From Candidatus Adlerbacteria bacterium GW2011_GWA1_54_10 (GTDB lineage: Bacteria; Patescibacteriota; Minisyncoccia; Phycocordibacterales; SBAW01), in contig LCRO01000003.1 in assembly GCA_001004665.1 (NCBI GenBank), positions 63,984-127,983 of the forward strand: DNA of 64,000 nt, in the 5' to 3' direction. The notes below the pieces were generated by a model that searched no databases, was not told the origin of the DNA, and was given only the letters and a program-made list of their open reading frames with translations. Position 1 is the first letter of the stretch; each line of letters opens with the position of its first letter. The translations under genes and the position numbers were made by a program. Positions 3,574-35,100 of the stretch are shown here, piece by piece.

Positions 3574-4853
3574 TCAGCGACTGGTAAAACCGGATTTCAG
3601 TAAAAATCGTCCGAACGGCTTCTCCGCATTTATGCCGAGTGCGAGAAGAAAAGTTCGCGAGATAGTTATCGCCGACAGCATGGAAACAAGGACACCTATA
3701 CCGAAAACGAGTGCAAATCCCTTGATAAGGGACGTCCCGAACCAAAACAGTATTACAGCGGCAATGATGTGCGCAAAGTTGCTGTCGCGGATAGCGAGCC
3801 ATGCTCGCGCAAATCCCTCGCGAATGGCAGATTCCGCCTTTTTGCCGGCCGCAAGTTCTTCTTTAATGCGCTCGGCAATGAGGATGTTTGCGTCAACCGC
3901 AAGCCCCACAGAAAGTATGAAGGCGGCTATGCCCGCGGCAGTCAGCACCACCGGAATAAGCTTGAAGAGCGCGAGCATAAGCACGACGTATATTACGAGT
4001 GCGAATACAGCTACAAGCCCCGGCAGACGGTACCAAAGGATCATAAAGACCGACAATACGGCAAAGCCGGCAAGTCCGGCAAAGAGGCCGGCGCGCAGCG
4101 CGGTCTCTCCCAATATCGCGCCTATTGTCTGCGTGCTCTGCAATTCTATGGGCACGGGCAGGGCCCCCAGGTTGAGTCCGCGCACGAGCTCGCGCGCGGA
4201 CTCCGCAGTGAAATTGCCGGAGATTACTGCACTACCGCCGTCTATGCGCTCTCTGACGACGGGGGCGGATATTCCCCGCCCGTCAAGGAATATGGCGATG
4301 TATCCTCGCGCGACGAGTATTTGACTAAGGAACTCGCGGATCTTGAGGGGTCAAAAGAGAAACTGGAGGAAATGATGGACGAACTTGAGGGGTCTCCATG
4401 CTCGTCGGAAACATTTTTTTCGAATTCCTTTTTGACCAGCTTAAACTCAAGTAGGGGCGTCCGGCCTATCATCGCTGTCGCCTCCTCGATGTCGGTAACG
4501 CCCGGCAGCTCGACAACGAGCCGGTGCTCGCCCTGTCCAAGCGCCCCGCCCTGCTCCGTCTCTACAACCGGCTCGCCCACTCCGAAGGCGTTCACGCGCC
4601 GCTCGATGACCTCGCGGAGCGTCCCTAGTGAATCCGCGATGTCTTCCGATTTTAGCTTGCTCGTATCCGCGCGATAGACAAGATGAGTGCCTCCGGAGAG
4701 ATCAAGCCCCAATTTAAAATCAAACCGCCCGCCGCCGCCTGTTGTGACCCATACAAAAAAGCCAATGACGGCCGATGCTATAAGGATCAAAATGGCGCTG
4801 TACCGCAACCAAAACATGATAGGCAGGATAACAGAGATTGAATTTTTTGCCAA
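3574..4853 (-). CDS. secD: Protein translocase subunit SecD, interrupted by one frameshift (N-part 4433-4853, C-part 3574-4185+)
   Basis: N-terminal ORF has TM1 + LGLDLSGG motif then an out-of-frame Ser/Pro-rich tail; C-terminal ORF has SecD TM bundle. Frame change coincides with an A7/T7 homopolymer at 4418-4424. Confidence 0.75.
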
Positions 4854-19580: not shown

Positions 19581-19620
19581 CTACAAATTTTACCATCATA
19601 GACTTATCCACAGTTTTTCT

Positions 19621-19643
19621 TGCGAAGGTCAGACCTTCGCAAA
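19621..19643. repeat. 23-nt perfect palindrome (copy 1, overlaps transposase stop codon)
   Basis: ttgcgaaggtcagaccttcgcaa; 11-bp perfect arms. Confidence 0.9.
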
Positions 19644-20312
19644 CCGTTCTCCTGTATAAGATTTTAACAATTCTTCAAGATCATTTTGAGTCCTAAGGAA
19701 ATCTGGGGCTTGGTCAGAAGAAAGGACTGCGCCTTCCGGTCGATTACCCGAGATGTAGTCATAGAAACTTGAGTAGCGGTAAGAATGCAGGAAATTTCTC
19801 GCCGTATTTCCATCCGTTATACCTATTTTTTCCCAATCTGGAAAAACCAACGAAAGAGGATTGAGATGTACATAAGCAAATATGTAACGGAAATAGGGCT
19901 CGTCGTCTACATGTCTACTTTTAAATGCTCCTTGTGCAATAATACCGCTGTGTTTGTGGAGAATATTGAAATACATCGAGTAGCCGGTGAAAACCTTTCG
20001 GGTAAATTTTGATATCCCACACTCTTTTTTCTCGCGTAAAACTAGATGGAAGTGATTAGGCATTAAACAATATGCGAATATATCCACAAGTGATTTGTCT
20101 GGTTTTTCCTCTTTGAAAATAACCGCGGAATCAAAGCCTTCGTACTTTCTTAATGTCTCACGGACATCTACTCTACAATCGCTGTTTGATAAGTGGAGAA
20201 GCAAAAGAAAACGCTTATAATCCGAATCGGTTGTGAAAATGGATTGTTTATGGGCACCTCTATTATAGAGATGATACATTTCTCCAACTGCAAAGGGAGC
20301 ATCTTTTCTCAT
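19629..20312 (-). CDS. HUH Y1 transposase (IS200-like / REP-associated tyrosine transposase-like)
   Basis: 227 aa; HUH motif CLMPNHFHLV and downstream Tyr-containing helix (RYIFAYVHLNP) typical of Transposase_17 (PF01797-like) proteins. Confidence 0.7.
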   Translation of the reverse strand: MRKDAPFAVGEMYHLYNRGAHKQSIFTTDSDYKRFLLLLHLSNSDCRVDVRETLRKYEGFDSAVIFKEEKPDKSLVDIFAYCLMPNHFHLVLREKKECGISKFTRKVFTGYSMYFNILHKHSGIIAQGAFKSRHVDDEPYFRYIFAYVHLNPLSLVFPDWEKIGITDGNTARNFLHSYRYSSFYDYISGNRPEGAVLSSDQAPDFLRTQNDLEELLKSYTGERFAKV

Positions 20313-20315
20313 AAG

Positions 20316-20338
20316 TTGCGAAGGTCTGACCTTCGCAA
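20316..20338. repeat. 23-nt perfect palindrome (copy 2, 4 nt upstream of transposase start codon)
   Basis: ttgcgaaggtctgaccttcgcaa. Confidence 0.9.
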
Positions 20339-20370
20339 CTCCATCGTAACATTGAAGATGAACGAATCAT

Positions 20371-20393
20371 ATGCGAAGGTCTGACCTTCGCAA
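20371..20393. repeat. 23-nt palindrome (copy 3)
   Basis: atgcgaaggtctgaccttcgcaa. Confidence 0.9.
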
Positions 20394-20442
20394 GAACTGT
20401 GGATAACTTTCGATTCGCGATGTTTAGTCTTGCGATTGCCCT

Positions 20443-21031: not shown

Positions 21032-22141
21032 TTATTGCATCCCGTTTACTATTGTGCGGGTCTTGGGGCCGAAGTAGCCGGCCGCCGGAGAGATATTATT
21101 AGTCTTTTGGAATTTGACGAGCGCGGCGCGAGTCAAGCCGCCGAATCTGCTTGTCTCGTTGCCGGACGAACCAGGGCCGCTCGCCGCCACCTCGTAGCCG
21201 TGAGTATTCAGGAACACCTGCAGGGCCTTGACGTCGTCGCCTGTCATTCCGATTTCCAGATCGCGAGTGAACGCTCCAAATACTACCGTCGCGCTGGGAG
21301 TGGTGGACGGTGCCGCGCTCGCGGCAGGGACCAAAACGTCGCCGTTAAGCGCCGCGCGCGTCTTGGGGCCAACGTAGCCGGTCTGCGATATGCCCATGCT
21401 CTTTTGATACGCCCGAACCGCCACGCGCGTGAGTCCGCCGAAATATCCCTTGGCAATGCCGGACGGTATCGTCAGAAATCCTTTATTCTCAAGAAATGTT
21501 TGCAGAGCCACAACGGCATCATTTTCCGCTCCGATTCCGAAATCCTCCGAAAACGCTATCCCCGCGGTTGCCGGTGCAGAAGTTTGCGTCGAAGTTTGCG
21601 TGCCTGTTTGCGTCGTCGCCGAGGTGGAAGGGGTTGTCTGCGTAGTGCTGGTGGTCGTGGTCGTAGTGCTTGTCGTAGTTTGCGTGGTTGCAATCGGACC
21701 GCCCCCGCCGCCGCCTCCACCGCCGCTGCTGCTACTGCTGCTGCCTCCGCCGCTTGGACCGGCGCTCGGACACGCGGTGGTATTTGGAGTTACGGTAACG
21801 GTTGTTGTGCCATCTACAGAAGAAATCGATGTGAGCGAGGTCCCTCCGCTCTCGCATGTCGTAGCGGCCGAGTAGCCGGAAGTGGTTGCCGTAGAAACGC
21901 CGGTCAGATATCCGTTTGCGCTCCGCGCATCAAACGAGGATGACGGCGCGACCGCGACGTTGAAACTGTTTGTATCAACTAGAAGAGACTCGACGGAAGA
22001 TGAGGCGACGGACGTGAACGAAACGCTGTTCGACGATATCGTAACGTCCGCGCCTATTGTCACGTCGTTATACGTCGCGAGCGCAACCGCCGGCAGAAGA
22101 AGCGCAATGGCTCCCAAGAGTATTCCCAGTATTTTTTTCAT
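21032..22141 (-). CDS. Secreted protein: signal peptide, Ser/Thr/Gly-rich region, two C-terminal peptidoglycan-binding (PG_binding_1-like) repeats
   Basis: MKKILGILLGAIALLLPAVALA signal; poly-Gly/Thr tract; two copies of DVKALQVFLN..GY.....GYFGPKTR.AL..FQ. Confidence 0.7.
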   Translation of the reverse strand: MKKILGILLGAIALLLPAVALATYNDVTIGADVTISSNSVSFTSVASSSVESLLVDTNSFNVAVAPSSSFDARSANGYLTGVSTATTSGYSAATTCESGGTSLTSISSVDGTTTVTVTPNTTACPSAGPSGGGSSSSSSGGGGGGGGGPIATTQTTTSTTTTTTSTTQTTPSTSATTQTGTQTSTQTSAPATAGIAFSEDFGIGAENDAVVALQTFLENKGFLTIPSGIAKGYFGGLTRVAVRAYQKSMGISQTGYVGPKTRAALNGDVLVPAASAAPSTTPSATVVFGAFTRDLEIGMTGDDVKALQVFLNTHGYEVAASGPGSSGNETSRFGGLTRAALVKFQKTNNISPAAGYFGPKTRTIVNGMQ

Positions 22142-22181: not shown

Positions 22182-22904
22182 CTATTTGCAGTCCCCAGCT
22201 TCTATGCGGAGAGTTGTGCCGTTGACGTATATTCTGGTAACTATTCCGGCGTCATTCTCAAGCTGGATACAGCCGCCCTTGGTATCGTGAGAAGACGTTA
22301 TCCAGAGCGTCGTCGTGCCGGGGCCGTCCACGATTGCCTCGGCGTGCGAGTACTGCGGCGTCGTCGAACCTACCGTAAGAAGACTCGCGACAGTTGTAGT
22401 GGCAAGCGTAGACGTTGCGGACGAGACCGAAAGTGTGGAGGTAAGTGCAACTGCCCCGTCAAAGTATGCCGCGCCGTCAACTTCCATAGCGCCCTCGACA
22501 CCGAGTTCGTCGGCGCCAACCGCGCCGATGTTGCCGAAGGTCGTGCCAGTGCCGACGCGCACCTGCGTAAAGTAGCCGGTTGCGGTAATTGAATCTGTAA
22601 CCTCATCGCCCAAAGTCGAGTTGCCGTTAACGGTAAGAGCCCCCTCCGTGGCAATAGCGCCGGTTGCGGCTGTTGTCGTTGCAAAGCCGTTGACCATGAA
22701 GTTGCCTGTCATAGAGGCGATGGTCGAAGAAGCGGTTGTTAGCGACGAGTGGCCTGAAACCGTGAGTGTGCCTGCGGTGTCTATATTAGCGTTAATGGTG
22801 GTTGCGGCGCCTACGATAGTGGCACCAAGAGCGACCGCGCCAAGGACCGAGAGTCCGACCAAAGCGGCGGAACGGGTCTTGCCGCGAATAAACGAGCTTT
22901 TCAT
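22182..22904 (-). CDS. Secreted Thr/Gly/Ala-rich hypothetical protein
   Basis: Start trimmed to MKSSFIRGKTRSAALVGLSVLGAVALGA (signal-like); low-complexity beta-rich body. Confidence 0.5.
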   Translation of the reverse strand: MKSSFIRGKTRSAALVGLSVLGAVALGATIVGAATTINANIDTAGTLTVSGHSSLTTASSTIASMTGNFMVNGFATTTAATGAIATEGALTVNGNSTLGDEVTDSITATGYFTQVRVGTGTTFGNIGAVGADELGVEGAMEVDGAAYFDGAVALTSTLSVSSATSTLATTTVASLLTVGSTTPQYSHAEAIVDGPGTTTLWITSSHDTKGGCIQLENDAGIVTRIYVNGTTLRIEAGDCK

Positions 22905-22992
22905 ATTGACATTAAAATAAAATAATAAGTGCACCAATTGAGCGCACAAAAAACGTCTTTCTATTATAGACCCAAAATAAAGGCATCCTGTG

Positions 22993-23006
22993 GAACTGTG
23001 GATAAC
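22993..23006. repeat. Third copy of the 14-nt gaactgtggataac motif (contains DnaA-box consensus TTATCCACA on minus strand)
   Basis: Identical 14-mer to 20394-20407; located ~89 nt upstream of the 22182-22904 gene start. Confidence 0.8.
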
Positions 23007-23008
23007 GC

Positions 23009-23039
23009 AAAAACCCCTCCGTCTTTCGGAGGGGTTTTT
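23009..23039. terminator. Bidirectional intrinsic terminator (aaaaacccctccg-tcttt-cggaggggttttt)
   Basis: 8-bp GC stem flanked by A5 and T5; 3' of the 23082-26633 gene. Confidence 0.7.
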
Positions 23040-23081
23040 GCTTGTGCGTTAGCCAGGAGTTCCTAGCCAGCTTGTGTTTGG

Positions 23082-26000
23082 TTACTTCGAGAGCGTCTGG
23101 CCCGAGAGACCGGCGGACGGAAGGCCGGATATGCCATAGCCGTTCGTCCAGTCAAGATTGTGAGCCGTGGACGTAGTTGTGGCGTTCGGCGACCAGATGA
23201 AGTCGTCATTCCCGCCGCCGTTGCCGTCCACCGTAGCGGCCTTGGCTGTAAGCGGACCGCCTAGATGCGGATATGCCGCATCGCCGACGAGTTTCGTCGT
23301 AAGCGAGCCACTGAATGTGCCTGTGCCGGCAGTAAGTGCAACATCGAGCACTACCTTGAAGTAGTACGTCGAGCCCGCCGGGACCTGCAGGACCGACGAG
23401 AGAACCGCGCTGTTATCGCCCGCGATTATCTGGCCGTCGGTGCCGTCGAAGACGAGACCGTCGGTGTAGCCCGATACCGCCTGGCTCATCGCCGAGTCGG
23501 TGTAGGCGTAGATGTCGAGGTTCTCTACCGACGTAGTGCCGGTAACTGCGCTGTTGGCGCTGGTAGCCACATTAACGGTGAACTTGTAGAGCCCGATACC
23601 GTTCGGATTGCCAGTGTTGCTTGCAGTGACGCTGAAGCAGTGTACCGCTTGGGCCGTGCCGGTTATGAGCGTGCCAAGGCTAGAACACGCGCCACTGCTG
23701 TACTGAGCGACGGTCGGAACATCGCGGAATATGCGGATGCCCGCGCCGTCGGTGTCAGTGGCCGACCCTTGGTTTATGGTCGTGCCCGACGCCTGGCCGA
23801 TAGAGCGAGTGCCGGTCGTGTCATTGCCGTCGTACTCGACCTCAAGCAGGAGGCCGTTGGTCGTGGTTGCCTGTCCGGTGCCGATGCCCGCAAGATCGCC
23901 TTTGACTGTGATGACCTTGTAGCCGTTGGCCGGAATGGTAACCGTGCCACAACCGGTGCAGGTGCCTATCGTCGAGGTCGCGTAGCGGCTGGTGAAGATC
24001 GCTTCGCCCACCTTTGTTGCGCCGTCCCACAGCGTTACTTTGTTGATGTTGGACGGAGTCGATGTCGAGGCGCCGTTAGCCATCTCGAGGGCCACGCGGT
24101 CGAGTTTCTGGTCCTCGTTGGTGCCGTCGAAACGGATTATGTTGAGCAATGAGTTGCTCACGCCCGCGACAGCTATTGTGTAGGACGGAGCCGATGCGTC
24201 GCGGCTGACCGTGAGCGCGCCGGAACCCGCTATCGTCATCGTGTTGCCTCCGGTCGTGATGGAAGCGGCGATAGAACTGCCGGAGCCAATGCCCGTGCCC
24301 GAGATCGTGTCGCCGTCGGTAACGCCCCATGCGAACGTGTCGGAGGCCGTAGCGCTGCCCGGAATATCACATTTGATGGCGACCGTCTTGGTTGTGCCTT
24401 TTGGCACCACAAGCGCGGTATCGAATGTGAAGGTATGCGCCGCCGTAGAGGACGGGTTGACCGAAGTGTCATTGAGCCGCTGTGAGCCGTCGTAGGCCAC
24501 GCAGTTGCTGACGTCGGTTGTCATACCGTCTGTATAGCGGAACTGCGCGCTGTTGAAGCGCACATCCTCGCCGGACTGACCGGCGTCGAAGATTATGTTC
24601 GCCGCGGTGAAGCCGATTACGCCCGCGACCACGTTTTGCGCGGCCGGAGTGCCGGATACCGATGCCGTCACGCTGCCGGTCTTGACCGTCATCGTGTTCA
24701 TCGAGAAGTTCCCCTGCGTAATGCTGATGGTGTTGCCGGTGATGGCCCCCGTGCGGCCCGACCAGCCGGACGGCGTCGTCGAGGCGCTTACCGTTTGGTT
24801 GTTGGAGACCGTCGAAGGGAGCTTGCCCTTGAGCGAGAATACGTGCCTGCCGGTTGGGAAGGTCACCGAGTCGCTGAAGGTCGCGACTTGGAGTCCGCCC
24901 GAAGCAGAAGCGTCAACCGGGCCCGCAACTATTTTGCCGTTCTCATCGACGATGCTGATGCTCGTCAAGAGCTCGGAAGCGTTGCTGTCGGCGTTCGTTC
25001 CATAAGAGATGTTGAATATCATCTGCGTCATGGTAACGCCCTCGCCCTTGAAGTCTGTCACGAAACCGCCAAGAGGCTGGTTAGCGACCTGCACGGCGAT
25101 GTTCTGCGCCGGAACTTCAGCCGCTTTGCCGATGAGGTTCACCGTCGCGGCGTTGATGGTCGTTACATAGCCAGAAGTCCACGGGGTCGAGGTCGAGTGC
25201 GACATGCCGATGCCGAATCCATAGGTCTGTCCCACGAAGTAGATGTCGGTAGACTTGTCGATGTCGAAGTCGACTGTGCGGCTTGCGGAGTTCGCGCCGA
25301 CGATGTCGCCGCGGACGTGTATGTCTATCGTATTGCCCTTGGGGATCGAGATTCCGCCTGGGAATACGCTCGTGTAGTACTTGCCGGAGCTGTCAACGGT
25401 GGTCGGGTAGACCGTGCCGTCTATGAGCGTCTGAACGTTGGCCAAGTCGGAAGGACCGACCGTGCCTACCTGGCGCCACCTTAGGCTGTGGAGCTTGAGG
25501 TCCTCCGCCGAGCCTGCGGTGAAGCGCTGGCCGGTAAAGCGGACCGCCGTATCGCCGAGGTTTTTGGTCTGGGCCGCCGCCGGGTCGAAGGCGCTCGTGG
25601 TGGTCGAGATCGTGCCTATCGAGAGCGTTTCGTTGACGGTGTGGCTGGCTCCTGTGATTGGGAGAGAGCCGGATACCGCCGCCGAGGTGTTTACTGCCAC
25701 GACCGCGAGGCTTGCGACCTCGCCCGCGTGGCTGTTGGTGTCGGCTCGGTTGCCCGCGACCGTGAAGGTTTTGGACGTGCCCCTCGGGATAACAACCGTG
25801 TCGCCGATAGTGGCTTGATGGTTGCTGTTGAGAGTGCGCGCGATGCCGACTTGCGCCCCTGTCGAGGCGTCAAGCAATACAACACCGGCGAAAATCGCAT
25901 CATTTGCAGCGCCTTGGCGTTCCACCGTGATGCTGTTTATCGTCACGTCGCCGTCATTGCCCGCGGTGAGCGTGAAGTTGGTGAACGGAATGCGGTTCGC

Positions 26001-26633
26001 GTTGTCGGGAGCAAGGCCGTTCATAGGCTGGATTGCCGCCGAGACGGAAACGCCCGTGCCCGGAGTCGGAGTCGGTGTCGGTGTGGGGCTAGGGGTCGTG
26101 CCGCAGACCGCCGCGATAGCCGCGCGAGTGATAGGGCCAACGTAGCCTGCTACAGGCGCAACGTTATTTGCCGCCTGGAACTTCATGGCCGCCGCCTTCG
26201 TAATGGGCCCGAAGTAGATGCTTTCATTTCCAGGGGAACCAGCACCAGTAACGGCGAGCTGGGTCGAAGCACTTCCGTTAAGGAAGACCTGCAAGGCCTT
26301 CACATCGGCACCGCTCGAACCTTGCTGGAGGTCCCGAGAGAGCGCGGGGCATGCGCCGGCAGAGCCGCCGGTGCCCGGAGTCGCCTGGCCTTGGAGAGCC
26401 GCGGTGACGTTAGCTATCGTTGCCGAGTCCGCACCAAACGATGCGAGCAGGGAAACGATCGACTGGATCTGCGCCTGTGTGAGCGCCGCCGCTTGCGCGG
26501 GAGCGATAGCGACCGCGCCCATAAGCGCGAGCGCGACCGCGACGCCGGTCGCGAGCGCAACCAGTCTGGTCGAACTGTTGGTAATAGTCATAACCAATAA
26601 ATAAGTCGAACAAATTAACTTACTGGTAAACAA
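23082..26633 (-). CDS. Giant (~1170 aa) secreted/surface protein: signal/TM, PG_binding_1-like domain, Pro-Thr linker, long array of beta-rich repeat domains
   Basis: N-terminal hydrophobic segment; DVKALQVFLNGS...YFGPITKAAAMKFQ PG-binding motif; TPSPTPTPTPTPG linker; repetitive Thr/Ser/Gly-rich Ig-like segments. Likely start M at ~26591. Confidence 0.65.
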   Translation of the reverse strand: MFTSKLICSTYLLVMTITNSSTRLVALATGVAVALALMGAVAIAPAQAAALTQAQIQSIVSLLASFGADSATIANVTAALQGQATPGTGGSAGACPALSRDLQQGSSGADVKALQVFLNGSASTQLAVTGAGSPGNESIYFGPITKAAAMKFQAANNVAPVAGYVGPITRAAIAAVCGTTPSPTPTPTPTPGTGVSVSAAIQPMNGLAPDNANRIPFTNFTLTAGNDGDVTINSITVERQGAANDAIFAGVVLLDASTGAQVGIARTLNSNHQATIGDTVVIPRGTSKTFTVAGNRADTNSHAGEVASLAVVAVNTSAAVSGSLPITGASHTVNETLSIGTISTTTSAFDPAAAQTKNLGDTAVRFTGQRFTAGSAEDLKLHSLRWRQVGTVGPSDLANVQTLIDGTVYPTTVDSSGKYYTSVFPGGISIPKGNTIDIHVRGDIVGANSASRTVDFDIDKSTDIYFVGQTYGFGIGMSHSTSTPWTSGYVTTINAATVNLIGKAAEVPAQNIAVQVANQPLGGFVTDFKGEGVTMTQMIFNISYGTNADSNASELLTSISIVDENGKIVAGPVDASASGGLQVATFSDSVTFPTGRHVFSLKGKLPSTVSNNQTVSASTTPSGWSGRTGAITGNTISITQGNFSMNTMTVKTGSVTASVSGTPAAQNVVAGVIGFTAANIIFDAGQSGEDVRFNSAQFRYTDGMTTDVSNCVAYDGSQRLNDTSVNPSSTAAHTFTFDTALVVPKGTTKTVAIKCDIPGSATASDTFAWGVTDGDTISGTGIGSGSSIAASITTGGNTMTIAGSGALTVSRDASAPSYTIAVAGVSNSLLNIIRFDGTNEDQKLDRVALEMANGASTSTPSNINKVTLWDGATKVGEAIFTSRYATSTIGTCTGCGTVTIPANGYKVITVKGDLAGIGTGQATTTNGLLLEVEYDGNDTTGTRSIGQASGTTINQGSATDTDGAGIRIFRDVPTVAQYSSGACSSLGTLITGTAQAVHCFSVTASNTGNPNGIGLYKFTVNVATSANSAVTGTTSVENLDIYAYTDSAMSQAVSGYTDGLVFDGTDGQIIAGDNSAVLSSVLQVPAGSTYYFKVVLDVALTAGTGTFSGSLTTKLVGDAAYPHLGGPLTAKAATVDGNGGGNDDFIWSPNATTTSTAHNLDWTNGYGISGLPSAGLSGQTLSK

Positions 26634-27070
26634 TTGTTAATCGCACTTCGCACGGTACGGGAACGTAGAACATGTTCTACCTCAAACCAAGTACTAGCCC
26701 ACTATGGGATTAGCCATTGGTAAGTTTGGTAGCCAAGTAGATGACGGACATACAGCCATTGTCTTTCCATGAAGGGACAAGGAGTTTCAGGGTATGAAAT
26801 TTTCAATGACCAATCAAAACAGACTCTGCGACCGTGCAGGGGCTAGGGGTTATTATAAGCCCCGAAAGATGCCCGCAAAAAAGTCCTGTGGACAACCCTC
26901 CTTCGCCAAAGGCTACGGACGGGCAAGCAAAATAGCCCTATAAATTAGGGGCTCCTTTTGTTAGTTCCACATGAAATGAAGATATACCAAGAGGGGCGAT
27001 GGGTCAATTTGACAAAATATTTAAAAATGCTGAAGTATCATGCCGGCACCGGGCGTTGCCATTTTTGAGC

Positions 27071-27748
27071 CTATGCCGGCTCGTAATGGCTCCAACGGCG
27101 CTCCCCCACTCTTTTTACAAGACCCTGCTCTATAAGTATCCCAAGCTCGCGCTGGATCGTTTTTTCACTGCAGTCTTTTACAATTGACATGATGTCTTTA
27201 ATTGATGGACTTTTTTGTTTTTTTATAAAATCCAGTATTAAGGACATTCTGTCCTTTTGTCCTTTATATTGTCCTTTATGTCCTTTATGAAAAGGCTCGT
27301 CCTTTATAGTATCCGAGAGGGCCGGCAGTCGCTCGGGCTCCCCTGGCAGGGAGATGGCAAACTCCTCGGTTCCGAACGGCGAGGGATGGCTTCCCTCGAC
27401 CAGCTTCTCCGCCAATTGTTCATACTCGCGGCACAACACAGTGGCATTTTCCTGTGACAATGCTTCGTTTGTCGCCGCCAGTCGCGTGCCCGCAAGCAGA
27501 GCAAAAACGTCCGCGAGGGCCGCTTCGGCATCAAGCTCGCCCGCCGCAAGGCGCGCAACGGTACCGGGCAATTGCGCCGCAATATGGGCCAAATCCTCAA
27601 GGACATTGCCGGGGGACGTTCGCGCCAGAAGCATAAATACATGCGCGATGCGCTCTGATTTTAGGAAGCAAAAATACCAGTCGTGCCGTCCTTTAAAAAG
27701 GATTGATTTTAAGGCAAATTCATGAAATTTTTTATGTTTGTCCGGCAT
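27071..27748 (-). CDS. Hypothetical regulator with C-terminal winged-HTH and internal HKG/QYKG tandem repeat
   Basis: C-terminal SIKDIMSIVKDCSEKTIQRELGILIEQGLVKRVGERRW resembles DeoR/HTH_11-type wHTH; HKGHKGQYKGQKD encoded by tandem gtcctttat repeats. Confidence 0.45.
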   Translation of the reverse strand: MPDKHKKFHEFALKSILFKGRHDWYFCFLKSERIAHVFMLLARTSPGNVLEDLAHIAAQLPGTVARLAAGELDAEAALADVFALLAGTRLAATNEALSQENATVLCREYEQLAEKLVEGSHPSPFGTEEFAISLPGEPERLPALSDTIKDEPFHKGHKGQYKGQKDRMSLILDFIKKQKSPSIKDIMSIVKDCSEKTIQRELGILIEQGLVKRVGERRWSHYEPA

Positions 27749-27794
27749 GGATGTCTTTTATCTGTCCTTTAGAATGTCTTTTATATAAAAGACA

Positions 27795-27821
27795 CTTCAA
27801 GGACATTTTGTGTCCTTGAAG
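27795..27821. promoter_or_regulatory. Perfect 11-5-11 inverted repeat cttcaaggaca-ttttg-tgtccttgaag in the divergent promoter region (candidate operator)
   Basis: Lies 54-80 nt upstream of the ftsK start (27875) and 47-73 nt upstream of the 27071-27748 gene start (27748). Confidence 0.5.
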
Positions 27822-27874
27822 TATATACCTATAGGGAAAAGCTGCAAATATTTTTTGCGTGGTATTATTTTTTA

Positions 27875-30064
27875 ATGGCGCGGAAAAACAGGAAGGACAT
27901 CGCGGCGCTAAATCCGTTAAAAAATATTCCCGAACACACAAAGAAGGCGATCGCAGTTGTGATACTCGTCGTGCTGGGGCTTTTTCTTACTCTTGCGTCC
28001 TTCGATGCGGCGGGCATCGCAGGAAGCGACGCGTACACCCTCTTCGCCTCCCTGCTCGGGGTTGGATACTTCCTTTTGCCGGTCCTGTTTTTTGTTCTTG
28101 CCGCTGCGACGCTTAAAGAAGAGAGGCCGGGATTCTCATTTTTAAAATTATTCGCGAGCGCACTCTTTCTGATTGCCGGGCTTGGATTCGTCGAAGCCGT
28201 GAGCAAAAACGGCGGACTCGTCGGCAGGGCCATAGCAGGGCCCGCGATTTTGTACTTTGATATTTATGCGGCGCTGATAGTGCTCGGCGGACTGCTTATA
28301 GTCGCAATCCTGCTCCTTCTTGAAAGTCGGATCACTCTTGAGCCGCTTGCGAGCTTGTGGAATTTTTTGCGAAAAACGTGGAATGTTTTAACGCACCGGG
28401 AGCAGCCCGCGGCCGGACTTGCGCCGGATGATCAATTGCCTGAAGCGGAGATTGAAGTGACCGAGGATGAGGAAATAATAATAGCGGAGCCGCGGGAGAC
28501 GCCGACCCCGAGGCAGAAATCCGCATTCAGCCTCAAGTCCCTGCTAGACACTTACGTCCCGCCGCCCTTATCGCTGCTCGAGAGGGACCGCGGAAGGCCC
28601 GGCGTCGGCGACATTAAGTCCAATGCCAACATAATAAAGCGCACTCTGCAGAACTTCGGCATTCAGATAGAGCTTGATGAAATTTCGATAGGCCCAAGCG
28701 TCACGCGCTACGCCATCAAGCCCGCCGAGGGCGTGCGCCTGCAGAAAATAGTCTCGCTCCAAAACAATCTGGAGCTCGCTCTGGCCGCGCATCCTGTGCG
28801 CATAGAGGCTCCCATACCCGGCAAGTCGCTGGTCGGCATCGAGGTACCTAATTCCGCCAAAGTTACCGTCGGACTCGGCACACTGCTCGAGTCGCCGCAA
28901 TTCGCGCAGTCGCAAAAGCCGCTTCTTGTCGCGCTCGGGCGCGACATCGCGGGAGGGTCGCACTTCGGCAATCTCGCGCGTATGCCGCACCTTCTTATCG
29001 CGGGCGCCACCGGGTCGGGAAAATCCGTGGCGATACACGGGATAATAAACTCGCTGCTTTACCGCTGCGGCCCCGCGCAATTGCGCATTATCATGATAGA
29101 CCCCAAGCGCGTGGAGCTTACGCTTTATCGCTCTCTTCCCCACCTCCTTACTCCCGTAATAACCGACGCCAAGCGCGCCATCATGGCCCTGCGCTGGGCG
29201 GGAAGGGAGATGGAGAGGCGCTATGTAATCTTAGAGGAGACGCGCGTACGCGATGTCGAGTCGTACCACCAAAATATTCTCGCGCCCGCGGTCGCCAAAG
29301 CAAAGGCCGGTAAAGCGGCGAGCGAAGAAGAAATACCGGAGGCCATGCCCTATATCATCATCGCGATCGACGAACTTGCTGATATCATGCAGACTTACCC
29401 GCGAGAACTCGAGGGGGCTGTGGTGCGACTGGCGCAAATGAGCCGCGCGGTCGGGATACACCTGCTTCTCTCGACCCAGCGCCCTTCGGTCAACGTCATC
29501 ACGGGACTCATCAAAGCGAACATTCCGGCGCGCATCGCGCTCCAGGTCGCATCGCAGTTCGACTCGCGCACGATACTCGACCAGGGTGGCGCGGAGAATC
29601 TACTTGGCAGCGGTGACATGCTCTATCTGGGAGCCGAGATGCAGAAACCCGTGCGCTTGCAGAACGCGTTCATCTCGGAAAAAGAAGTGAAGTCGGTCGT
29701 TGATTTTATAGCGAAGAATAACGAGGCCGAGGTGCCCGTAGAAATAGGCGCGCCTGGACAAAGCGGCGAGGCTAGGGCGCCTGCCCTCCACAGTCTCGAC
29801 GAAGGAGGCTTCGAAGAAGAAATAGACGACGAGTTGTACGAGGCCGCGCGCGCGGCCGTCGTGGAGGCCGGCAAGGCCAGCACATCTTATCTCCAGCGCA
29901 AACTTCGCATAGGCTACGCGCGCGCGGCGCGGATCGTAGACCTCCTCGAGGAGCGCGGGATTGTCGGTCCCGGCGAGGGGGCGAAGCCGAGAGAAATATT
30001 GGAGAGATCAACAGGCGCGACCGATACGGAAACCGCGAAGCAAGAGTTCCTCGCGGAGGAGTAG
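27875..30064 (+). CDS. ftsK: DNA translocase FtsK/SpoIIIE
   Basis: 729 aa; N-terminal TM helices, Walker A GATGSGKS, Walker B IIAIDELAD, C-terminal gamma domain (wHTH). Confidence 0.9.
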   Translation: MARKNRKDIAALNPLKNIPEHTKKAIAVVILVVLGLFLTLASFDAAGIAGSDAYTLFASLLGVGYFLLPVLFFVLAAATLKEERPGFSFLKLFASALFLIAGLGFVEAVSKNGGLVGRAIAGPAILYFDIYAALIVLGGLLIVAILLLLESRITLEPLASLWNFLRKTWNVLTHREQPAAGLAPDDQLPEAEIEVTEDEEIIIAEPRETPTPRQKSAFSLKSLLDTYVPPPLSLLERDRGRPGVGDIKSNANIIKRTLQNFGIQIELDEISIGPSVTRYAIKPAEGVRLQKIVSLQNNLELALAAHPVRIEAPIPGKSLVGIEVPNSAKVTVGLGTLLESPQFAQSQKPLLVALGRDIAGGSHFGNLARMPHLLIAGATGSGKSVAIHGIINSLLYRCGPAQLRIIMIDPKRVELTLYRSLPHLLTPVITDAKRAIMALRWAGREMERRYVILEETRVRDVESYHQNILAPAVAKAKAGKAASEEEIPEAMPYIIIAIDELADIMQTYPRELEGAVVRLAQMSRAVGIHLLLSTQRPSVNVITGLIKANIPARIALQVASQFDSRTILDQGGAENLLGSGDMLYLGAEMQKPVRLQNAFISEKEVKSVVDFIAKNNEAEVPVEIGAPGQSGEARAPALHSLDEGGFEEEIDDELYEAARAAVVEAGKASTSYLQRKLRIGYARAARIVDLLEERGIVGPGEGAKPREILERSTGATDTETAKQEFLAEE

Positions 30065-30071
30065 GGGTTGC

Positions 30072-30443
30072 ATGAAAAAAATAATCATTTTAGTTATTGT
30101 CCTAGTCGTACTATCGTACAGTCTGTTTGAAGCGCGAAAATTGATCGCGGGCCCGCGCATAACGATAGAATCTCCATCAAACGGCACAGCCACTTCGACC
30201 GACCTGGTGCTGGTAAAAGGAGTGGCGGAGAATATAGACTTTTTGACTATAAACGATTCGCCAGCCTATACCGACGAGGAGGGCCGATTTACGTACCGCT
30301 ATTCCCCGCCAGCGGGGTATACTGTGATAGTGGTCGCCGCGGCGGACCGCTTTGGCCGCCGCGCTTCGAGATCGGTCGTCATTACCGTCGTTAACTATTG
30401 CCCGGTCAAAGACCTGACTTTGGCCAAGCAAAAAAATGTTTAA
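30072..30443 (+). CDS. Small membrane-anchored hypothetical protein (Ig-like extracytoplasmic domain)
   Basis: Start trimmed to [16 protein letters not shown] (TM); overlaps recA start by 8 nt. Confidence 0.45.
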
Positions 30444-31515
30444 AGCAAAAGAGAAGAAGCCCGCAAAAACCATGGCGGCCGCAAAAGACAGCACGGCAAT
30501 AGACGCGGCCATACGCGAGATAAAAACGAAATTCGGCGACGAGGCCATAATGAAGTTGGGCGATGCGCCGAAAGTCGGCGTCGACGCCATTCCCTCCGGC
30601 TCCGTGGGCCTTGACTGGGCGCTTGGTATCGGCGGCTATCCGCGCGGGCGCATCATCGAGATATTCGGTCCCGAGTCATCCGGCAAGACAACTCTCTCGC
30701 TCCACGCCATTGCCGAGGCACAAAAGAAAGGCGGCGTATGCGCTTTTATAGACGCGGAACACGCGCTCGACCCCATGTACGCCGGGAAAATAGGGGTAAA
30801 GCTCGATGAGCTTTTGGTAAGCCAGCCGGACACCGGCGAGCAGGCGCTCGAGATTGTGGAGTCGCTCGTGCGCTCGGGCAAGGTGGACATTATCGTCGTG
30901 GACTCCGTCGCGGCACTGACCCCCAAGGACGAGATAGAGGGCGACATGGGGCAGAGCCATGTCGGCAAGCAGGCGCGCCTAATGTCCCAGGCTCTGCGCA
31001 AGCTGACAGCCATTGTGGCCAAGTCAAAAACGGTCGTCGTATTCATTAACCAGATCCGCATGCAGATAGGCGTGATGTTCGGCAATCCGGAGACAACGCC
31101 GGGCGGAAAGGCTTTGAAGTTTTATACCAGCGTCCGACTCGACATCCGCCGCATCGCGCAGATAAAGAAGGGCGAGGAAGTCGTTGGAGGCAGACACCGC
31201 GTCAAGGTGGTCAAGAACAAGGTGGCGGCCCCATTCCGCAGCGTGGAATTCGACCTTATGTACAACGAGGGCGTCTCGCGCGAGGGCGAGCTTATAGCAC
31301 TCGGCGAAAAACTCGGTGTCATCCAAAAAAGCGGTACGAGCTATTTACTCGGCGAGGAAAAACTTGGCCGCGGCTACGACGCGACCCGCACATTTTTGCG
31401 CGAAAACAAAAAAACGGCGAACGAAATTTTGAAGGAGATCCGCCACGCTCTCGCGGCGAACGCCTCAAGCAAAGGCGCGGCGGGAGGGAGCAGTCCAGAT
31501 GATGTCGAGGAGTAG
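30436..31515 (+). CDS. recA: Recombinase RecA
   Basis: 359 aa; GPESSGKTT Walker A, conserved L1/L2 loop regions. Confidence 0.95.
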
Positions 31516-31783: not shown

Positions 31784-32401
31784 CTATATATTAGTGGTTA
31801 CCTGCTGATAAATTTTCCTGAATTCTTTTTTCGCGCGGTGCACTCGGGTTTTTATAGCGCCCACTGACAATCCCTCCTCGCACGCTATCTCTTCCTGCGA
31901 TTTTCCTTCCATAAAAAACGCGTTGAGCACACGGGCGAACGGCGACGGCATCCGCGACAGCACCGACGCCGCCATGTCCTCCAGCTCTTTCTTCTCGAAC
32001 TGCCGGAGGTTGCGGTCCGGAATGAGCGCCCATATCTCCTCGTCCAGCTCCGCCGTATGGGCTCTCTCGCGCTTTATCTTGGCGTAATGCGTCAGCGCGG
32101 TATTGATGAGAATGCGGTACCCCCACGAAGAGAAGCTCGCCCCATCCTGCTTTTTGAACTTACCCGCATTGAGGTAAATTTTGGTAAAGGCCTCCTGGAC
32201 GACGTCCTCCGCGGCATCGCGCCGCCGCACGATGGAGAGAGCTTTCCGCAAAAATGGCCCCTCATATTTGCGGACAATCTGCGCAAAAAGCGACGGATGC
32301 GAAACGGAAAGTGCCAAAATCTCTTCGTCCGACTCGCTCTTGCGAGAAGGGTCGGAACGTACTTCCTCATCCGTAAGATATTCCATGGCCACAGGATACA
32401 C
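31784..32401 (-). CDS. RNA polymerase sigma-70 family, ECF subfamily
   Basis: 205 aa; region 2 (DVVQEAFTKIY) and region 4 HTH (EGLSVGAIKTRVHRAKKEFRK). Confidence 0.85.
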   Translation of the reverse strand: MYPVAMEYLTDEEVRSDPSRKSESDEEILALSVSHPSLFAQIVRKYEGPFLRKALSIVRRRDAAEDVVQEAFTKIYLNAGKFKKQDGASFSSWGYRILINTALTHYAKIKRERAHTAELDEEIWALIPDRNLRQFEKKELEDMAASVLSRMPSPFARVLNAFFMEGKSQEEIACEEGLSVGAIKTRVHRAKKEFRKIYQQVTTNI

Positions 32402-32450: not shown

Positions 32451-32906
32451 TTATTTCTCTTCAATATTCACCTCAACCGAAATTCCGTTTATGGTGAGTC
32501 CATCGAATACAGGCGCATTATCCGATTTTGAATCGGCAAACGACACGGAAAACGTTCTTCCAATTTCGCCGGAGTTATTGCAGCCCGACTTAGGCAAAAA
32601 TACTAGTCGTACTTGAACGCGCGCCGGTTCGGAGCCTACGGTGCGAAGGCCTGCGCTTAGGTCATTGCATGCCGGAGTGTTCACGACTCCGGAATACTTA
32701 TGTACTCCATTTGAAACCGAGTGTTCGATGAAAATAGGCGTCTGCTGGAGTTTCAGCATCGGATCTTCCGTTTCTGTCCCGGGCTGCGGCCGCAAGAAAG
32801 AGAAGTATGGCCCTGGAAAACCGATTAACGCAGAAGCCGCTCCCCATGCGACGTATACGGCAAGAGCGATAAAAATACCTGCGGCTATTTTTCCGGCTCT
32901 GCTCAT
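32451..32906 (-). CDS. Hypothetical membrane-anchored extracytoplasmic protein (first gene of the ECF sigma operon)
   Basis: Start trimmed to MSRAGKIAAGIFIALAVYVAWG (TM). ORF track start 33113 overlaps divergent gene. Confidence 0.4.
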   Translation of the reverse strand: MSRAGKIAAGIFIALAVYVAWGAASALIGFPGPYFSFLRPQPGTETEDPMLKLQQTPIFIEHSVSNGVHKYSGVVNTPACNDLSAGLRTVGSEPARVQVRLVFLPKSGCNNSGEIGRTFSVSFADSKSDNAPVFDGLTINGISVEVNIEEK

Positions 32907-33009
32907 TGCGGTAAGTGTACACCTTTCTAAAATGCGGGACACATCCCTATCAACAATGCTTGCGCCGCCGCCCGATTCCGAGTGTATACTTAAAACCGCA
33001 GACAGTTTT

Positions 33010-35100
33010 ATGAACTTATCTCCAGAGAGCTTGCGAACACTTTCGGGCTTGTGTGCCTCTGCCGCGGTGCTTGTGGGAATTACCGTACTTATAAGCGGAG
33101 ACCGGCCATTCACGATGGTACCGCCGGTTATGCCTCCCGCTATGCAGAATTCGGCAAATGCTTTCGCACCCGCGCAGTTGGTAGCTTCTCAAACCCAAAC
33201 CGCCGGCTGGTTTTCTGATTTTTTTGGCGGTAATAATCTTACCGTCTATGTCTGGCCTTCGGCGACATCGCCGGTTGTGCAAGGGCAGAACACGACCCTT
33301 ACATGGCAAGCCCTTAATGCCGATTACTGCACCTACTACGGGGCTCCGCCGGGGGGAACGTACTACACGCCGAACTATACGCCAATATCAGTAAGCGTCG
33401 GGCCTATCGACCAGGACGTTACTCTACTCGTATACTGCGTCAATACCGGGCCATGGAATACCGGCTATGGATCCGGCAGTGCGAGTGTGCATATCGTGTG
33501 CCCCGATGGATATACCTCCTCATATGAAACGATACCGACAGACGATTGGGGAGGCGGGGAGTGGGGTCCGTCTCAAATATTGACCTGTACGCCCCCCGCA
33601 GAACCTTCACTGCAATTATGGCCGGACAACAGCAATCTCCCGTACAACGGCTCGACGGGCGTCCACTGGCGCACACAGAATGCCGGCAATTGCCACGTCG
33701 CCGGTCCGGGAACGGATTGGGGTGGCGCGAACGGCGACCAGTCTACGCCGGCGCTCGCGCAGTACACGACCTATACCCTTTCGTGCGACAACGGTTCGCA
33801 ATCTATAGGTATCAATGTCGCGCCGCCACCGGGCGCGCCGAACGCGACTATTGGCGCGGATTCGACGAATATTTACGTTGGCCAGTCTGTCGGTATCCAT
33901 GCGGACTTTGCGGCAGGTTCCGGAGATTCGATGAACGGAAGCGCCATAAACCAGCCCGCAAATATCAGTGTTACCAATACCAATCCCGATTCGCATAAGG
34001 ATTACACTTTCACACCGGCCTCGCCCGGCGCATATGTCTTTACCGCGTGGGTGCTGACTCCTCTATACGCCTGGAACTCGTACGCTTCAATTGTGGTCAA
34101 TGTGAGCGAAGTGCCGTCATGCGGTAACGGCCTCGATATAAATGTATATCCAAGCTGTTCCTGCCCAAGCGGGCAAGTGCAGAATGGGAGCTTCTGCGAG
34201 CCGCCGCCATCCTGCCAGAACGGCCTCGATATCAACTCCTACCCAAGCTGTACATGTCCTAGCGGGCAATATCAAAACGGGAATTCCTGCTCAGCGATAA
34301 CGGCGCCGACCGCGATAATTTCCTCCGACTCGCCGACCATCCACGTCGGTGAGTCGACGACTATACATGCGAATTTTCAGATAGGACAAGGCGACTCGTT
34401 CACCGGCACGAATATAGACCAGCCGGAGGGACACGGTGTCGGCACAGGCGGAACGGCAACACAGCAGACATATACATTCGCACCAACCGCTGGCGGAGAC
34501 TATACTTTTTACGCGCGCGCAGCGACGGCGAATTACGGATGGCAGAGCTACGCAAACGCGACAGTGCATGTCATAAGCGTGCCGCCCGTCTGCACCGGCA
34601 ACTATTGCGATATCATTGTCGACCCGGTTGAGCCAGTTCTACCGGGTACGCCTGTCACCGTGCAGTGGACATGCAACCCGTTATCTTATTCTTCGTCTGA
34701 AGGGGGCGGCTTCTCGACTGGGGGCGCTCTGCAAGGCTCGACATTCGCAAATCCAATCGCCAACACAACCTATGTACTTAACTGCGTTGCCCCGGGCGGC
34801 TCGCGCACTCTGGCAAGCGCCGTCGTTACAGTGTTGCAACCCAACTTAAATATCTCCGCGGACCCGCCGCGAGTTCAGAGCGGCAATTCGAGCACTATTA
34901 CGTGGTCCGCAACGAACGTAAACGCAAATTCCTGCGCTGTAACGTCAAACCCGGCCGGCTTCTCCCGCAGTGGCTTGTCGGACAGCGGCATCGCGAGTAT
35001 AACTTCACAAACTGTTTTTACACTGCGTTGTATGGTGCCGGCGGGCCCGGTCAGTAAGACGACAACCGTAACTCTGGTCCCGTCGTACGAGGAAATATAG
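33010..35100 (+). CDS. Large secreted/surface protein with repeated Ig-like modules and tandem Cys-rich (CxCPSGQxQNGxxC) motifs
   Basis: Start trimmed to MNLSPESLRTLSGLCASAAVLVGITVLI (TM/signal). Repeated ...IHADF..G.GDS..G..I.QP... modules; two tandem 6-Cys repeats at aa ~495-560. Confidence 0.55.
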   Translation: MNLSPESLRTLSGLCASAAVLVGITVLISGDRPFTMVPPVMPPAMQNSANAFAPAQLVASQTQTAGWFSDFFGGNNLTVYVWPSATSPVVQGQNTTLTWQALNADYCTYYGAPPGGTYYTPNYTPISVSVGPIDQDVTLLVYCVNTGPWNTGYGSGSASVHIVCPDGYTSSYETIPTDDWGGGEWGPSQILTCTPPAEPSLQLWPDNSNLPYNGSTGVHWRTQNAGNCHVAGPGTDWGGANGDQSTPALAQYTTYTLSCDNGSQSIGINVAPPPGAPNATIGADSTNIYVGQSVGIHADFAAGSGDSMNGSAINQPANISVTNTNPDSHKDYTFTPASPGAYVFTAWVLTPLYAWNSYASIVVNVSEVPSCGNGLDINVYPSCSCPSGQVQNGSFCEPPPSCQNGLDINSYPSCTCPSGQYQNGNSCSAITAPTAIISSDSPTIHVGESTTIHANFQIGQGDSFTGTNIDQPEGHGVGTGGTATQQTYTFAPTAGGDYTFYARAATANYGWQSYANATVHVISVPPVCTGNYCDIIVDPVEPVLPGTPVTVQWTCNPLSYSSSEGGGFSTGGALQGSTFANPIANTTYVLNCVAPGGSRTLASAVVTVLQPNLNISADPPRVQSGNSSTITWSATNVNANSCAVTSNPAGFSRSGLSDSGIASITSQTVFTLRCMVPAGPVSKTTTVTLVPSYEEI

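Follow-up and report, generated by a model that had tools for sequence, protein, structure and literature searches.

A putative self-repressing winged-helix regulator of Paceibacteria with iteron-like operator arrays, one of them in its own linker codons

A 64,000-nucleotide stretch of the genome of Candidatus Adlerbacteria bacterium GW2011_GWA1_54_10 (contig LCRO01000003.1; hereafter the window, with positions counted from its first letter) carries a gene for a 225-residue protein ending in a winged helix (27071..27748, minus strand, open reading frame call), and short iteron-like repeats crowd both its promoter and its coding sequence (CDS). This locus raises the question of what the repeats are for: whether they act as DNA, as mRNA or as peptide, which protein would bind them and which genes would respond. 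An original prediction, made from the letters of the window, had proposed an autoregulatory repressor whose operator also controls the divergent ftsK and recA genes or, alternatively, the iteron-like sites of an integrated replicon. Here we describe the anatomy of the repeats, their conservation, the nucleotide-level selection that acts on them and their position relative to the core promoter elements. Based on these sequence data, we propose, with a probability of roughly 0.6, that the gene encodes a winged-helix factor that represses itself through iteron-like operator arrays, one of which is embedded in the codons of its own linker and read in two frames.

The positions flanking the seed copies in orthologous loci defined the repeat as a 9-bp site with the consensus TAAARGACA. 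When copies with at most one mismatch were counted, keeping GACA fixed, 13 of the 29 sites in the entire window were found within approximately 630 bp (27193-27819). The window contains 18 copies of the heptamer TGTCCTT where 5.35 would be expected; 10 of the 18 lie in 27240-27899, and no shuffle reached 18. GTCCTTTAT with at most one mismatch occurs 29 times against 10.65 expected. Both counts lie far over expectation and thus exclude chance as the source of the repeats. All the units listed in the original prediction were found, none more than 1 nt from the position first given: TGTCCTTTAT starts at 27258, 27270 and 27279, GTCCTTTAT at 27299, TGTCCTT at 27250 and the variant ATGTCTTTAAT at 27192. 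Upstream of the gene, TGTCTTTTAT is present at 27752 and 27775 and TGTCCTTTAG at 27763. An inverted arrangement, AAGGACA-N3-TGTCCTT, spans 27240-27256.

The regulator promoter of the window, as located by a consensus promoter scan, is of the sigma-70 type (TTTGCA-17-TATACT, 27848..27820, minus strand), with the -35 hexamer TTTGCA at 27843..27848 and the -10 hexamer TATACT at 27820..27825. A first putative operator palindrome starts within the last bases of the -10 and overlaps the predicted transcription start (27794..27822). It had been described as an 11-5-11 repeat; the inverted repeat is indeed perfect, and its true size is 12-5-12, ACTTCAAGGACA-TTTTG-TGTCCTTGAAGT. Its distances to the two flanking genes, previously put at 47-80 nt for both, were measured as 46 nt to the regulator ATG and 53 nt to the ftsK ATG. 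A second perfect palindrome, absent from the earlier list and also a putative operator, is formed by the two abutting sites TGTCTTTTAT and ATAAAAGACA (27775..27794). It is followed in the leader by two direct sites on the minus strand (27752..27771), TAAAGGACA at 27763-27771 and TAAAAGACA at 27752-27760, which lie 11 bp apart, the last ending 3 nt before the ATG; a spacing of 10-11 bp is also seen in orthologues. A terminator or attenuator reading of the first palindrome was considered, as the scan flags a hairpin with a T-run, but was rejected as a conserved feature since the predicted start lies inside the palindrome and the arms are only 5-7 bp long in orthologues. The leader itself (27746-27815, minus strand; 65-70 nt if the start lies inside the first palindrome) is predicted to fold into a nested hairpin of inverted site copies, with a free energy of -19.8 kcal/mol and a z-score of -4.5. 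This hairpin is probably a by-product of the operator layout; it could affect translation, there being no evident Shine-Dalgarno sequence.

In order to examine whether this layout extends beyond one genome, 80 orthologous loci from GTDB species representatives were oriented on the regulator and divided into close (40-58% identity) and distant (25-35%) groups. The absence of the repeats from orthologous loci would have told against the original prediction; both the promoter and the in-CDS repeats are conserved in about 80 species. The site density between -150 and the stop codon is 8.4 per kb, against 0.23 per kb in 800 kb of flanks, in which only one cluster of three or more sites was found outside the regulator. 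The hexamer AAGGAC/GTCCTT, with a background of about 0.03 per 100 bp, peaks in close orthologues at 1.12 just before the ATG and 0.93 over the first 100 bp, and again at 1.3-1.5 between +400 and +600, and distant orthologues show the same two peaks, at -100..+100 and +400..+600. The flanks of the seed are alike in coding and non-coding copies, a T being found at position -2 in 84 of 98 upstream copies and in 147 of 174 CDS copies. Of the 95 adjacent pairs of upstream sites in the close group, 43 are spaced 10-11 bp apart, and spacings of 21-22 bp form a secondary peak, a pattern that argues for binding on one face of duplex DNA.

The position of the sites relative to the promoter also recurs among orthologues. 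In 24 of 42 close orthologues, TATACT or TACACT is found 65-90 nt before the ATG (164 nt in one locus), with AARGACA following at a distance of 1-5 nt. In distant orthologues TATAAT is directly followed by [GA]GACA in 18 of 39, and extra copies are often present in the spacer between -35 and -10. These counts come from the strict patterns TATACT-N1-5-AARGACA and TATAAT-[GA]GACA, and most of the remaining close loci carry near-variants by eye. Where the strict pattern detects a partner TGTC half-site, it lies 3-9 nt further on, so that the core of the first palindrome, GACA-N3-9-TGTC, recurs after the -10 in orthologues. The centre of the inverted repeat is mostly 60-74 bp from the regulator ATG in close orthologues (range 50-88), and downstream of the -10 two to four sense-strand direct repeats with 10-11 bp spacing reach the ATG. 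A site abutting the -10 would occupy the textbook position for a repressor of its own promoter, and this arrangement in both groups lends support to the autoregulation that had been suggested.

A second array of two to six sites lies about 500 bp downstream of the promoter array, within the codons of a disordered linker. The window contains six copies there (27238..27307, minus strand): ATAAAGGAC at 27299-27307, coding for IKD; three copies of TAAAGGACA at 27279, 27270 and 27258, coding for H-K-G-H, K-G-Q and Y-K-G-Q; AAAAGGACA at 27250, coding for Q-K-D; and an inverted copy, TTAAGGACA, at 27238-27246, coding for M-S-L. These units translate to ...TIKDEPFHKGHKGQYKGQKDRMSLIL... and stand in tandem, with steps of 9 and 12 nt. 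Three further sites are spread along the gene: the site-like TTAAAGGAC(G) near the N-terminus (27688..27696, minus strand), which codes for the invariant L-F-K-G-R; an isolated TCAAGGACA in opposite orientation within the N-domain codons (27597..27605, plus strand), in which neither the site nor the peptide NVLE is conserved; and TTAAAGACA (27193..27201, minus strand), which codes for the conserved S-I-K-D-I of the winged helix. Directly 3' of the array is a 30-bp AT-rich segment (27209..27238) with 17% GC in a locus of 57% GC. The dip extends over 30-60 bp and is conserved, GC falling below the mean of the locus by 0.17 in close and 0.12 in distant loci, and the K/I-rich codons of the first helix may be its simple cause.

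At least one linker site is present in 74 of 79 orthologues (median three), and apart from the sites the linker is not alignable between distant orthologues; site copy number and linker length both vary between species. The site is read in two frames, either as xTA-AAG-GAC-A, giving I/V/L-K-D, or as xxT-AAA-GGA-CAx, giving (H/Y/N...)-K-G-Q/H. The third frame of the full site opens with the stop codon TAA, and of the AAGGAC hexamers, 118 fall in frame 0, 143 in frame 1 and 7 in frame 2. In order to separate selection on the DNA from selection on the peptide, synonymous codons were permuted within each gene, leaving protein and codon usage unchanged. Full CDS sites numbered 374 against 152.9 expected, with all 79 loci above expectation and 55 of them individually at or below 5%; the hexamer gave 447 against 220 by permutation and 189 from the codon usage of flanking genes. 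This excess in every locus means that selection in the linker array acts on the DNA rather than on the peptide. The family-consensus peptide IKDxxxKGQxKGQ is exactly what the site spells when translated in its two open frames and can thus be regarded as the translation shadow of a DNA element. The remark that repeats within the regulator's own CDS are unusual was correct and has become the central point; given the in-CDS sites and the conserved layout, the observation stands more firmly than could be told from one sequence.

The protein was next considered as a candidate binder. An AlphaFold2 single-chain model built from 118 homologues (mean predicted local distance difference test score, pLDDT, of 86) shows an N-terminal four-helix bundle at residues ~22-120 (helices 22-44, 51-68, 74-93 and 99-120), a disordered linker at residues ~121-161, in which pLDDT drops below 50 (138-160), and a C-terminal winged helix at residues 162-224. 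The intragenic array coincides with the linker of low pLDDT. The winged helix is the most conserved part of the protein, with SEKTIQRE...GERRWS invariant, and its invariance parallels that of the site across the family. A winged-helix-only isoform from an internal start at M168 (RMSLIL) was rejected as a family feature, as the methionine is present in a subset of close orthologues only.

No curated family in Pfam, NCBIfam or PHROGs matched the 225-residue protein above its cut-off, and Pfam returned only sub-threshold winged-helix matches. The domain had been called DeoR-like; the model bears out the winged helix and not the DeoR part, HTH_DeoR (PF08220) scoring 18.9 bits, short of the cut-off of 21 (E 1.3e-3, residues 167-214, at the C-terminus). 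Matches to the DNA-binding domains of LexA (Pfam E 0.028; TIGR00498 15.7 bits where the cut-off is 110.95, confined to the winged helix) and BlaI were weak and under thresholds, and those in PHROGs were weak and covered the last 60 residues only. These C-terminal 60 residues thus resemble the N-terminal winged helices of DeoR, BlaI/MecI and LexA weakly, in sequence or fold. Unlike in those proteins, the DNA-binding domain is C-terminal here and comes without a DeoRC, BlaR-cleavage or S24 peptidase domain: Pfam and NCBIfam gave no match to the DeoRC sugar-phosphate effector domain, the other domain being the four-helix bundle, and neither the family searches nor the model revealed an S24 peptidase or other damage-sensing domain. 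The fold of the N-domain matches the Avd or 'S23 ribosomal protein' family (PF05635; PDB 4dwl, 8ub7, 2rld and 2gsc) and, as modelled, suggests a ring-like oligomer. Sequence kinship to Avd/PF05635 was nevertheless rejected, as PF05635 gave no match at E<=1 and an N-domain profile found none of the 4dwl, 8ub7, 2rld and 2gsc chains at E<=10; four-helix bundles converge easily.

The family is large, with 1516 matches in a 90%-clustered collection and 2731 representatives at 50% identity (E<=1e-10); in GTDB species-representative genomes, at least 579 matches were confirmed. Wherever a source is named, it belongs to the Paceibacteria/Parcubacteria (Adlerbacteria, Nomurabacteria, Zambryskibacteria, Taylorbacteria and others), and database labels for the homologues are either hypothetical or a generic 'DeoR family'.

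We infer that the sites are bound by the product of the gene itself, that repression is the effect and that looping or a roadblock contributes to it. The winged helix would recognise the 9-bp TAAARGACA, and the four-helix bundle would probably mediate oligomerisation. The protein would bind the site or inverted repeat 1-5 nt after the -10, covering the transcription start, as well as the two to four head-to-tail leader sites one helical turn apart, and binding at promoter and leader would shut off its own transcription in negative autoregulation. The linker array about 500 bp downstream would most likely serve as an auxiliary operator, which may raise the local repressor concentration, loop to the promoter array via the oligomer and/or block elongation. 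Such an array could be accommodated in a linker that would tolerate almost any hydrophilic sequence, I/V/L-K-D and x-K-G-Q/H being compatible with it, and site copy number would then set a linker length that differs between species. The same protein would probably act at a few other site-bearing promoters, at least one of which has been located. Two features expected of an autorepressor are present, namely a site at its own core promoter and start, and selected copies within the transcribed region.

Intragenic operators that reinforce repression by looping or as roadblocks are familiar from lac O2 in lacZ, gal OI in galE and purR O2 in its own CDS, and purR is autoregulated through this site. 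The present locus is alike in having a primary promoter operator and further operators in the transcribed or coding region. It differs in that a phased multi-copy array (median 3-5 sites) replaces the single operator, is read in two frames within a disordered linker and has been kept in thousands of family members. Autorepressors with intragenic auxiliary operators and iteron-type layouts are both known kinds; what is new here is a variant of them in an uncharacterised large family of the candidate phyla radiation (CPR).

Several points weigh against this proposal. It is co-occurrence alone that points to the regulator as the binder, and the recognition helix and the site are both invariant in all 80 loci, which leaves no co-variation to link them. 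Part of the CDS site count is imposed by the conserved residues LFKGR and SIKDI. No 10-11 bp signal was found in the phasing between promoter and linker arrays, which leaves looping without specific support. Pure autoregulation also leaves the conserved divergent pairing with ftsK-recA unexplained. Lastly, the sense-strand bias of the CDS sites (152:22 and 159:27) and the stable predicted leader hairpin leave room for a role at the RNA level. Five rival explanations were weighed.

The rival that survives best is that the 9-mer is the target of a different, more global Paceibacteria protein, the regulator gene being merely one of its heavily controlled targets. It draws on the missing co-variation and on the occurrence of the site at other promoters. 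A metagenome pattern scan for two adjacent sites returned at least 120 loci, a number that includes chance and unrelated matches and is no regulon census; at least 10 of the loci are regulator genes, and the unrelated matches include 12-bp microsatellites (L085 and L149). A composite promoter was found in at least 22 Paceibacteria-type contigs (L082, L093, L094, L101, L108, L111, L112, L114, L116, L117, L118, L130, L133, L135, L137, L146, L152, L154, L161, L167, L182 and L183; for example L152 around 3750-3850 and L133 around 2290-2370), with a variant box in a further contig, L088. On one strand it reads GTTATCCACAG-N3-4 (or N13-14)-TGTCCTTTAcaaTGTCYTTTA-N-TATAAT-like, often followed by ATAAAGGACA. 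The junction at the first site makes a TTTACA -35 that lies 16-17 bp before the -10, and the two sites overlap the -35 and the spacer. The N13-14 variant is longer than N3-4 by one helical turn, which suggests face-specific contacts.

The composite promoter faces a gap of 300-540 bp between the 3' ends of the convergent genes for a CCA-adding enzyme and xer-xth, and the gap ends in a correctly oriented hairpin and U-run in most loci. No Rfam, transfer-messenger RNA or RNase P signature and no conserved open reading frame were found in the gap, which could, judging from this arrangement, encode an undescribed RNA of ~200-360 nt under the same 9-mer. The putative transcripts diverge too far in their bodies for a reliable alignment. 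The adjoining Xer has 70-80% identical homologues named Paceibacterota, Minisyncoccia and Taylorbacteria, the lineage of the regulator itself. In two CPR-type contigs among the matches listed (L105, 1999-2018, and L116, 4480-4500), the mature 5' end of tRNA-Pro is preceded, at a distance of 1-2 nt, by the site pair TAAARGACA-N2-3-TAAAGGACA. Together, the composite and tRNA-Pro sites suggest a small regulon beyond self-regulation. OmpR/PhoB-type activators at the pho box offer a likeness to the two sites of the composite promoter, combining a winged helix with head-to-tail repeats of ~11 bp over the -35. The regulator, however, has no receiver domain, and with the site junction itself making a good TTTACA -35, occlusion is as likely as activation.

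A different binder is nevertheless not very likely. The 36-fold density contrast is specific to the regulator gene in every species examined, autoregulators typically carry self-targeting arrays, and sites within a protein's own linker are most easily explained by co-inheritance of gene and site as a unit. The parallel invariance of recognition helix and site also speaks for the regulator.

A separate group of matches came from at least 12 integrase-associated loci on unrelated gut-type contigs of 39-61% GC (including L083, L102, L103, L115, L123, L158, L166 and L171), in which ATAAAGGACA-N2-3-TAAAGGACA lies just past a tyrosine-integrase gene and in several by what looks by eye like a tRNA 3' fragment. 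This pair may belong to an integrative element, as an arm-type or att-region sequence, and its likeness to the Paceibacteria site is probably coincidental.

The second rival takes the operator as shared with the divergent genes, so that the regulator would be a LexA-independent repressor of itself and of ftsK, the small gene and recA in a DNA-damage or cell-cycle regulon. The gene order on which this rests was borne out by gene calls: ftsK (27875..30064, plus strand), a small open reading frame in the same direction and recA (30436..31515, plus strand) diverge from the regulator. This synteny is retained in essentially all of the 80 loci with enough flank, across a short intergenic region of 119-252 bp. 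The winged helix bears its weak likeness to the LexA N-domain, and a large complex at the regulator promoter could still affect a promoter 45-180 bp away. However, ftsK has a promoter of its own: an extended -10, TGGTATTAT, lies 6 nt before its ATG (27860..27868, plus strand) and is a neighbour rather than a part of the operator, and in 34 of 34 ftsK genes with an aligned N-terminus a TGnTAnnWT extended -10 ends 6-12 nt before the ATG and neither carries nor adjoins a site. The inverted repeat lies 61-165 bp from the ftsK ATG, a far more variable distance than that to the regulator ATG. In the 80 loci no site arrays or palindromes were found before recA, at the ftsK promoter or before the small gene, and the protein lacks a damage-sensing domain. 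The data thus do not support the proposal that the operator controls ftsK, the small gene and recA as a non-LexA damage regulon, which we consider unlikely; a functional link between the regulator and ftsK-recA is possible in view of the near-universal synteny.

One further point in favour of a shared operator is a single AAGGACA or AAAGACA, on the sense strand, in the N-terminal codons of recA in about 11 of 42 close loci. It encodes part of a variable extension of RecA, K-D-(S/N/T)-x-A-I-D, and is found at 30478-30490 in the window (codons ~15-18) as well as in L002, L006, L007, L018, L020, L021, L024, L028, L039 and others. The ftsK mRNA is apparently leaderless, judging from 27860-27877 in the window and from 34 orthologous loci.

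The third rival sees the arrays as the core of a replication- or segregation-type nucleoprotein complex working with FtsK, at a site that would organise an origin, a centromere or a terminus. An inverted repeat at the gene's own promoter combined with helically spaced direct repeats is the classic iteron-Rep layout. The plasmid initiators RepA of pPS10, RepE of F and pi of R6K are winged-helix proteins that bind helically spaced direct repeats and, in autorepression, an inverted repeat at their own promoter. The regulator shares this two-mode layout, but has no match to Rep_3 or any other Rep family, has one winged helix and a four-helix bundle rather than tandem WH1-WH2 domains, and has no plasmid relatives. 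A likeness in placement is offered by lambda O and ori-lambda, where the iterons, of ~19 bp, fall in the interdomain linker of O. In both cases an array of binding sites, here putative, lies mid-gene in the gene of the binder itself, in linker codons and with variable copy number, extra copies lengthen the protein and an AT-rich stretch directly follows the array. The systems differ in that the sites here measure 9 bp at 10-12 bp spacing, the promoter of the gene carries an extra array, the locus is chromosomal and class-wide rather than phage-borne, and neither sequence kinship nor a sign of origin activity was seen. Extra iterons in ori-lambda are described as adding 13 residues to O (PMC7466680). 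The genes diverging from the locus, with ftsK as an invariant neighbour, and the N-domain fold, with its suggestion of a ring-like oligomer, would also suit such a complex.

A further point in its favour is the perfect DnaA-box 9-mer TTATCCACA/TGTGGATAA. The regulator loci, 875 kb in all, contain 79 copies where 6.7 would be expected, and in 44 of 80 loci a copy lies 30-400 nt past the regulator stop codon (+730..+1130 from the ATG). These 44 boxes share the context GTTATCCACA-N4-6-TTTTTTGCA and stand directly before the -35 of the next gene, a homologue of an 1183-residue surface protein; the copy in the window, GTTGTCCACA followed by TTTTTTGCG, is at 26887-26896 (minus strand). Given its fixed distance of 4-6 nt from the -35 and its presence at other promoters, the element belongs to promoters and not to the array. 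In these bacteria it has the look of a common element upstream of promoters, at which DnaA or another factor possibly acts as an activator.

Further copies of the DnaA-box 9-mer were noted elsewhere in the window. The hairpin GCGAAGGTCTGACCTTCGC together with CTGTGGATAAC stands on either side of an IS200/Y1-transposase-like open reading frame (19629..20312, minus strand; PF01797, 23.6 bits), with perfect 9-mers at 19604 and 20398 (region 19590-20420). The arrangement has a REP/RayT-type look, and similar hairpin-plus-box units recur in L035 and L040. A third perfect TGTGGATAA at 22997 lies beside a bidirectional terminator-like hairpin, AAAAACCCCTCCGTCTTTCGGAGGGGTTTTT (22985-23040), and ~28 nt upstream of the TATAAT that precedes an open reading frame at 22182..22949 (minus strand).

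Other evidence also weighs against a replication or segregation complex. No GC-skew switch was found in the 64-kb window, where the skew is negative on both sides, and skew differences were small and inconsistent across 54 regulator loci and 6 composite-promoter loci; a chromosomal origin or terminus at the locus thus finds no support in the skew. A local positive bump at 20-30 kb arises from the composition of the 1183-residue gene and of a gene for a PG_binding_1 protein beyond it. No Rep, O, ParB or ParR homology was found in Pfam or NCBIfam, and PHROG 270, 'replication initiation protein', matched at E 0.007 over the winged helix only. The AT-rich dip may be accounted for by the K/I-rich codons, and like site pairs occur on ordinary promoters elsewhere. 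We consider such a nucleoprotein complex improbable. Its fullest form, a chromosomal 'iteron machine' in which an oligomeric, possibly ring-shaped protein on two phased arrays would serve chromosome maintenance with FtsK and couple it to growth through stable-RNA promoters, is equally doubtful; ParR-parC and the lambda O-some are the analogues for an oligomer assembling on arrays in and before its own gene. Should an O-some or ParR-like complex beside ftsK prove real, the minimal cells of the CPR would have a chromosome-maintenance device of a new type. The alternative of an integrated replicon did not hold. The locus is chromosomal with class-wide synteny and no skew switch, searches of 2.9 M viral contigs, 72,556 plasmids and 50,697 phages returned no relatives, and no mobile genes adjoin the regulator, which disposes of an integrated plasmid or phage.

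The fourth rival places the function in the mRNA, where AUAAARGACA sense copies bound by a protein or the ribosome, or the leader hairpin (-19.8 kcal/mol, z -4.5), would control translation or stability. It is favoured by the strong sense-strand bias and by copies that reach a start codon with no obvious Shine-Dalgarno sequence. It is very unlikely all the same: the 10-11 bp periodicity suits a DNA face and not RNA, the distant group has untranscribed copies between -35 and -10, and the composite-promoter copies, in opposite orientation in untranscribed DNA upstream of the -10, argue for a function at the DNA level. The sense bias in the CDS has a coding cause, in that antisense frames give C-P-L, S-F and V-L, which are poorly suited to a disordered linker, and no meaningful Rfam match was found at 26500-28500. 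Least probable of all is the fifth rival, in which slippage during replication of a low-complexity linker produced the in-CDS repeats as a neutral by-product and the promoter sites alone are functional: the tandem window copies with 9- and 12-nt steps and the variable linker length and copy number fit slippage, which may generate copy-number variation but cannot maintain the same 9-mer and flanking T in two frames, in otherwise unalignable linkers of 25-35% identical orthologues and above synonymous shuffles in 79 of 79 loci.

The surroundings of the locus hold some further features. A large surface-protein gene downstream of the regulator is, like ftsK, kept in essentially all loci with enough flank. 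In the window this gene adjoins the regulator (23082-26633, minus strand) and encodes an 1183-residue Thr/Ala/Gly-rich secreted protein, syntenic in most loci, with a marginal PG_binding_1 match (22.2 bits against a cut-off of 23). The second PG_binding_1 protein is encoded after it, at 21032-22141 (minus strand). On the other side, shortly past recA, lie a gene for a sigma-70 factor of the extracytoplasmic function (ECF) type (31784..32401, minus strand) and its neighbour (32451..33113, minus strand), which is without a family match.

Gene regulation in the CPR is almost unknown, as these bacteria are largely uncultured. The regulator described here is, on the evidence of its sequence and sites, most likely a lineage-wide Paceibacteria/Parcubacteria transcription factor, hitherto uncharacterised, that controls its own gene. 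For a very large family, it provides a testable regulator-site pair, comprising a 9-bp site, a promoter layout and at least one further candidate target. The linker array also serves as a caution that low-complexity linkers should not be taken as purely protein features. It represents a natural overlapping code, in which a DNA array, putatively protein-binding, is kept within a coding sequence by means of two stop-free frames that spell a disordered linker.

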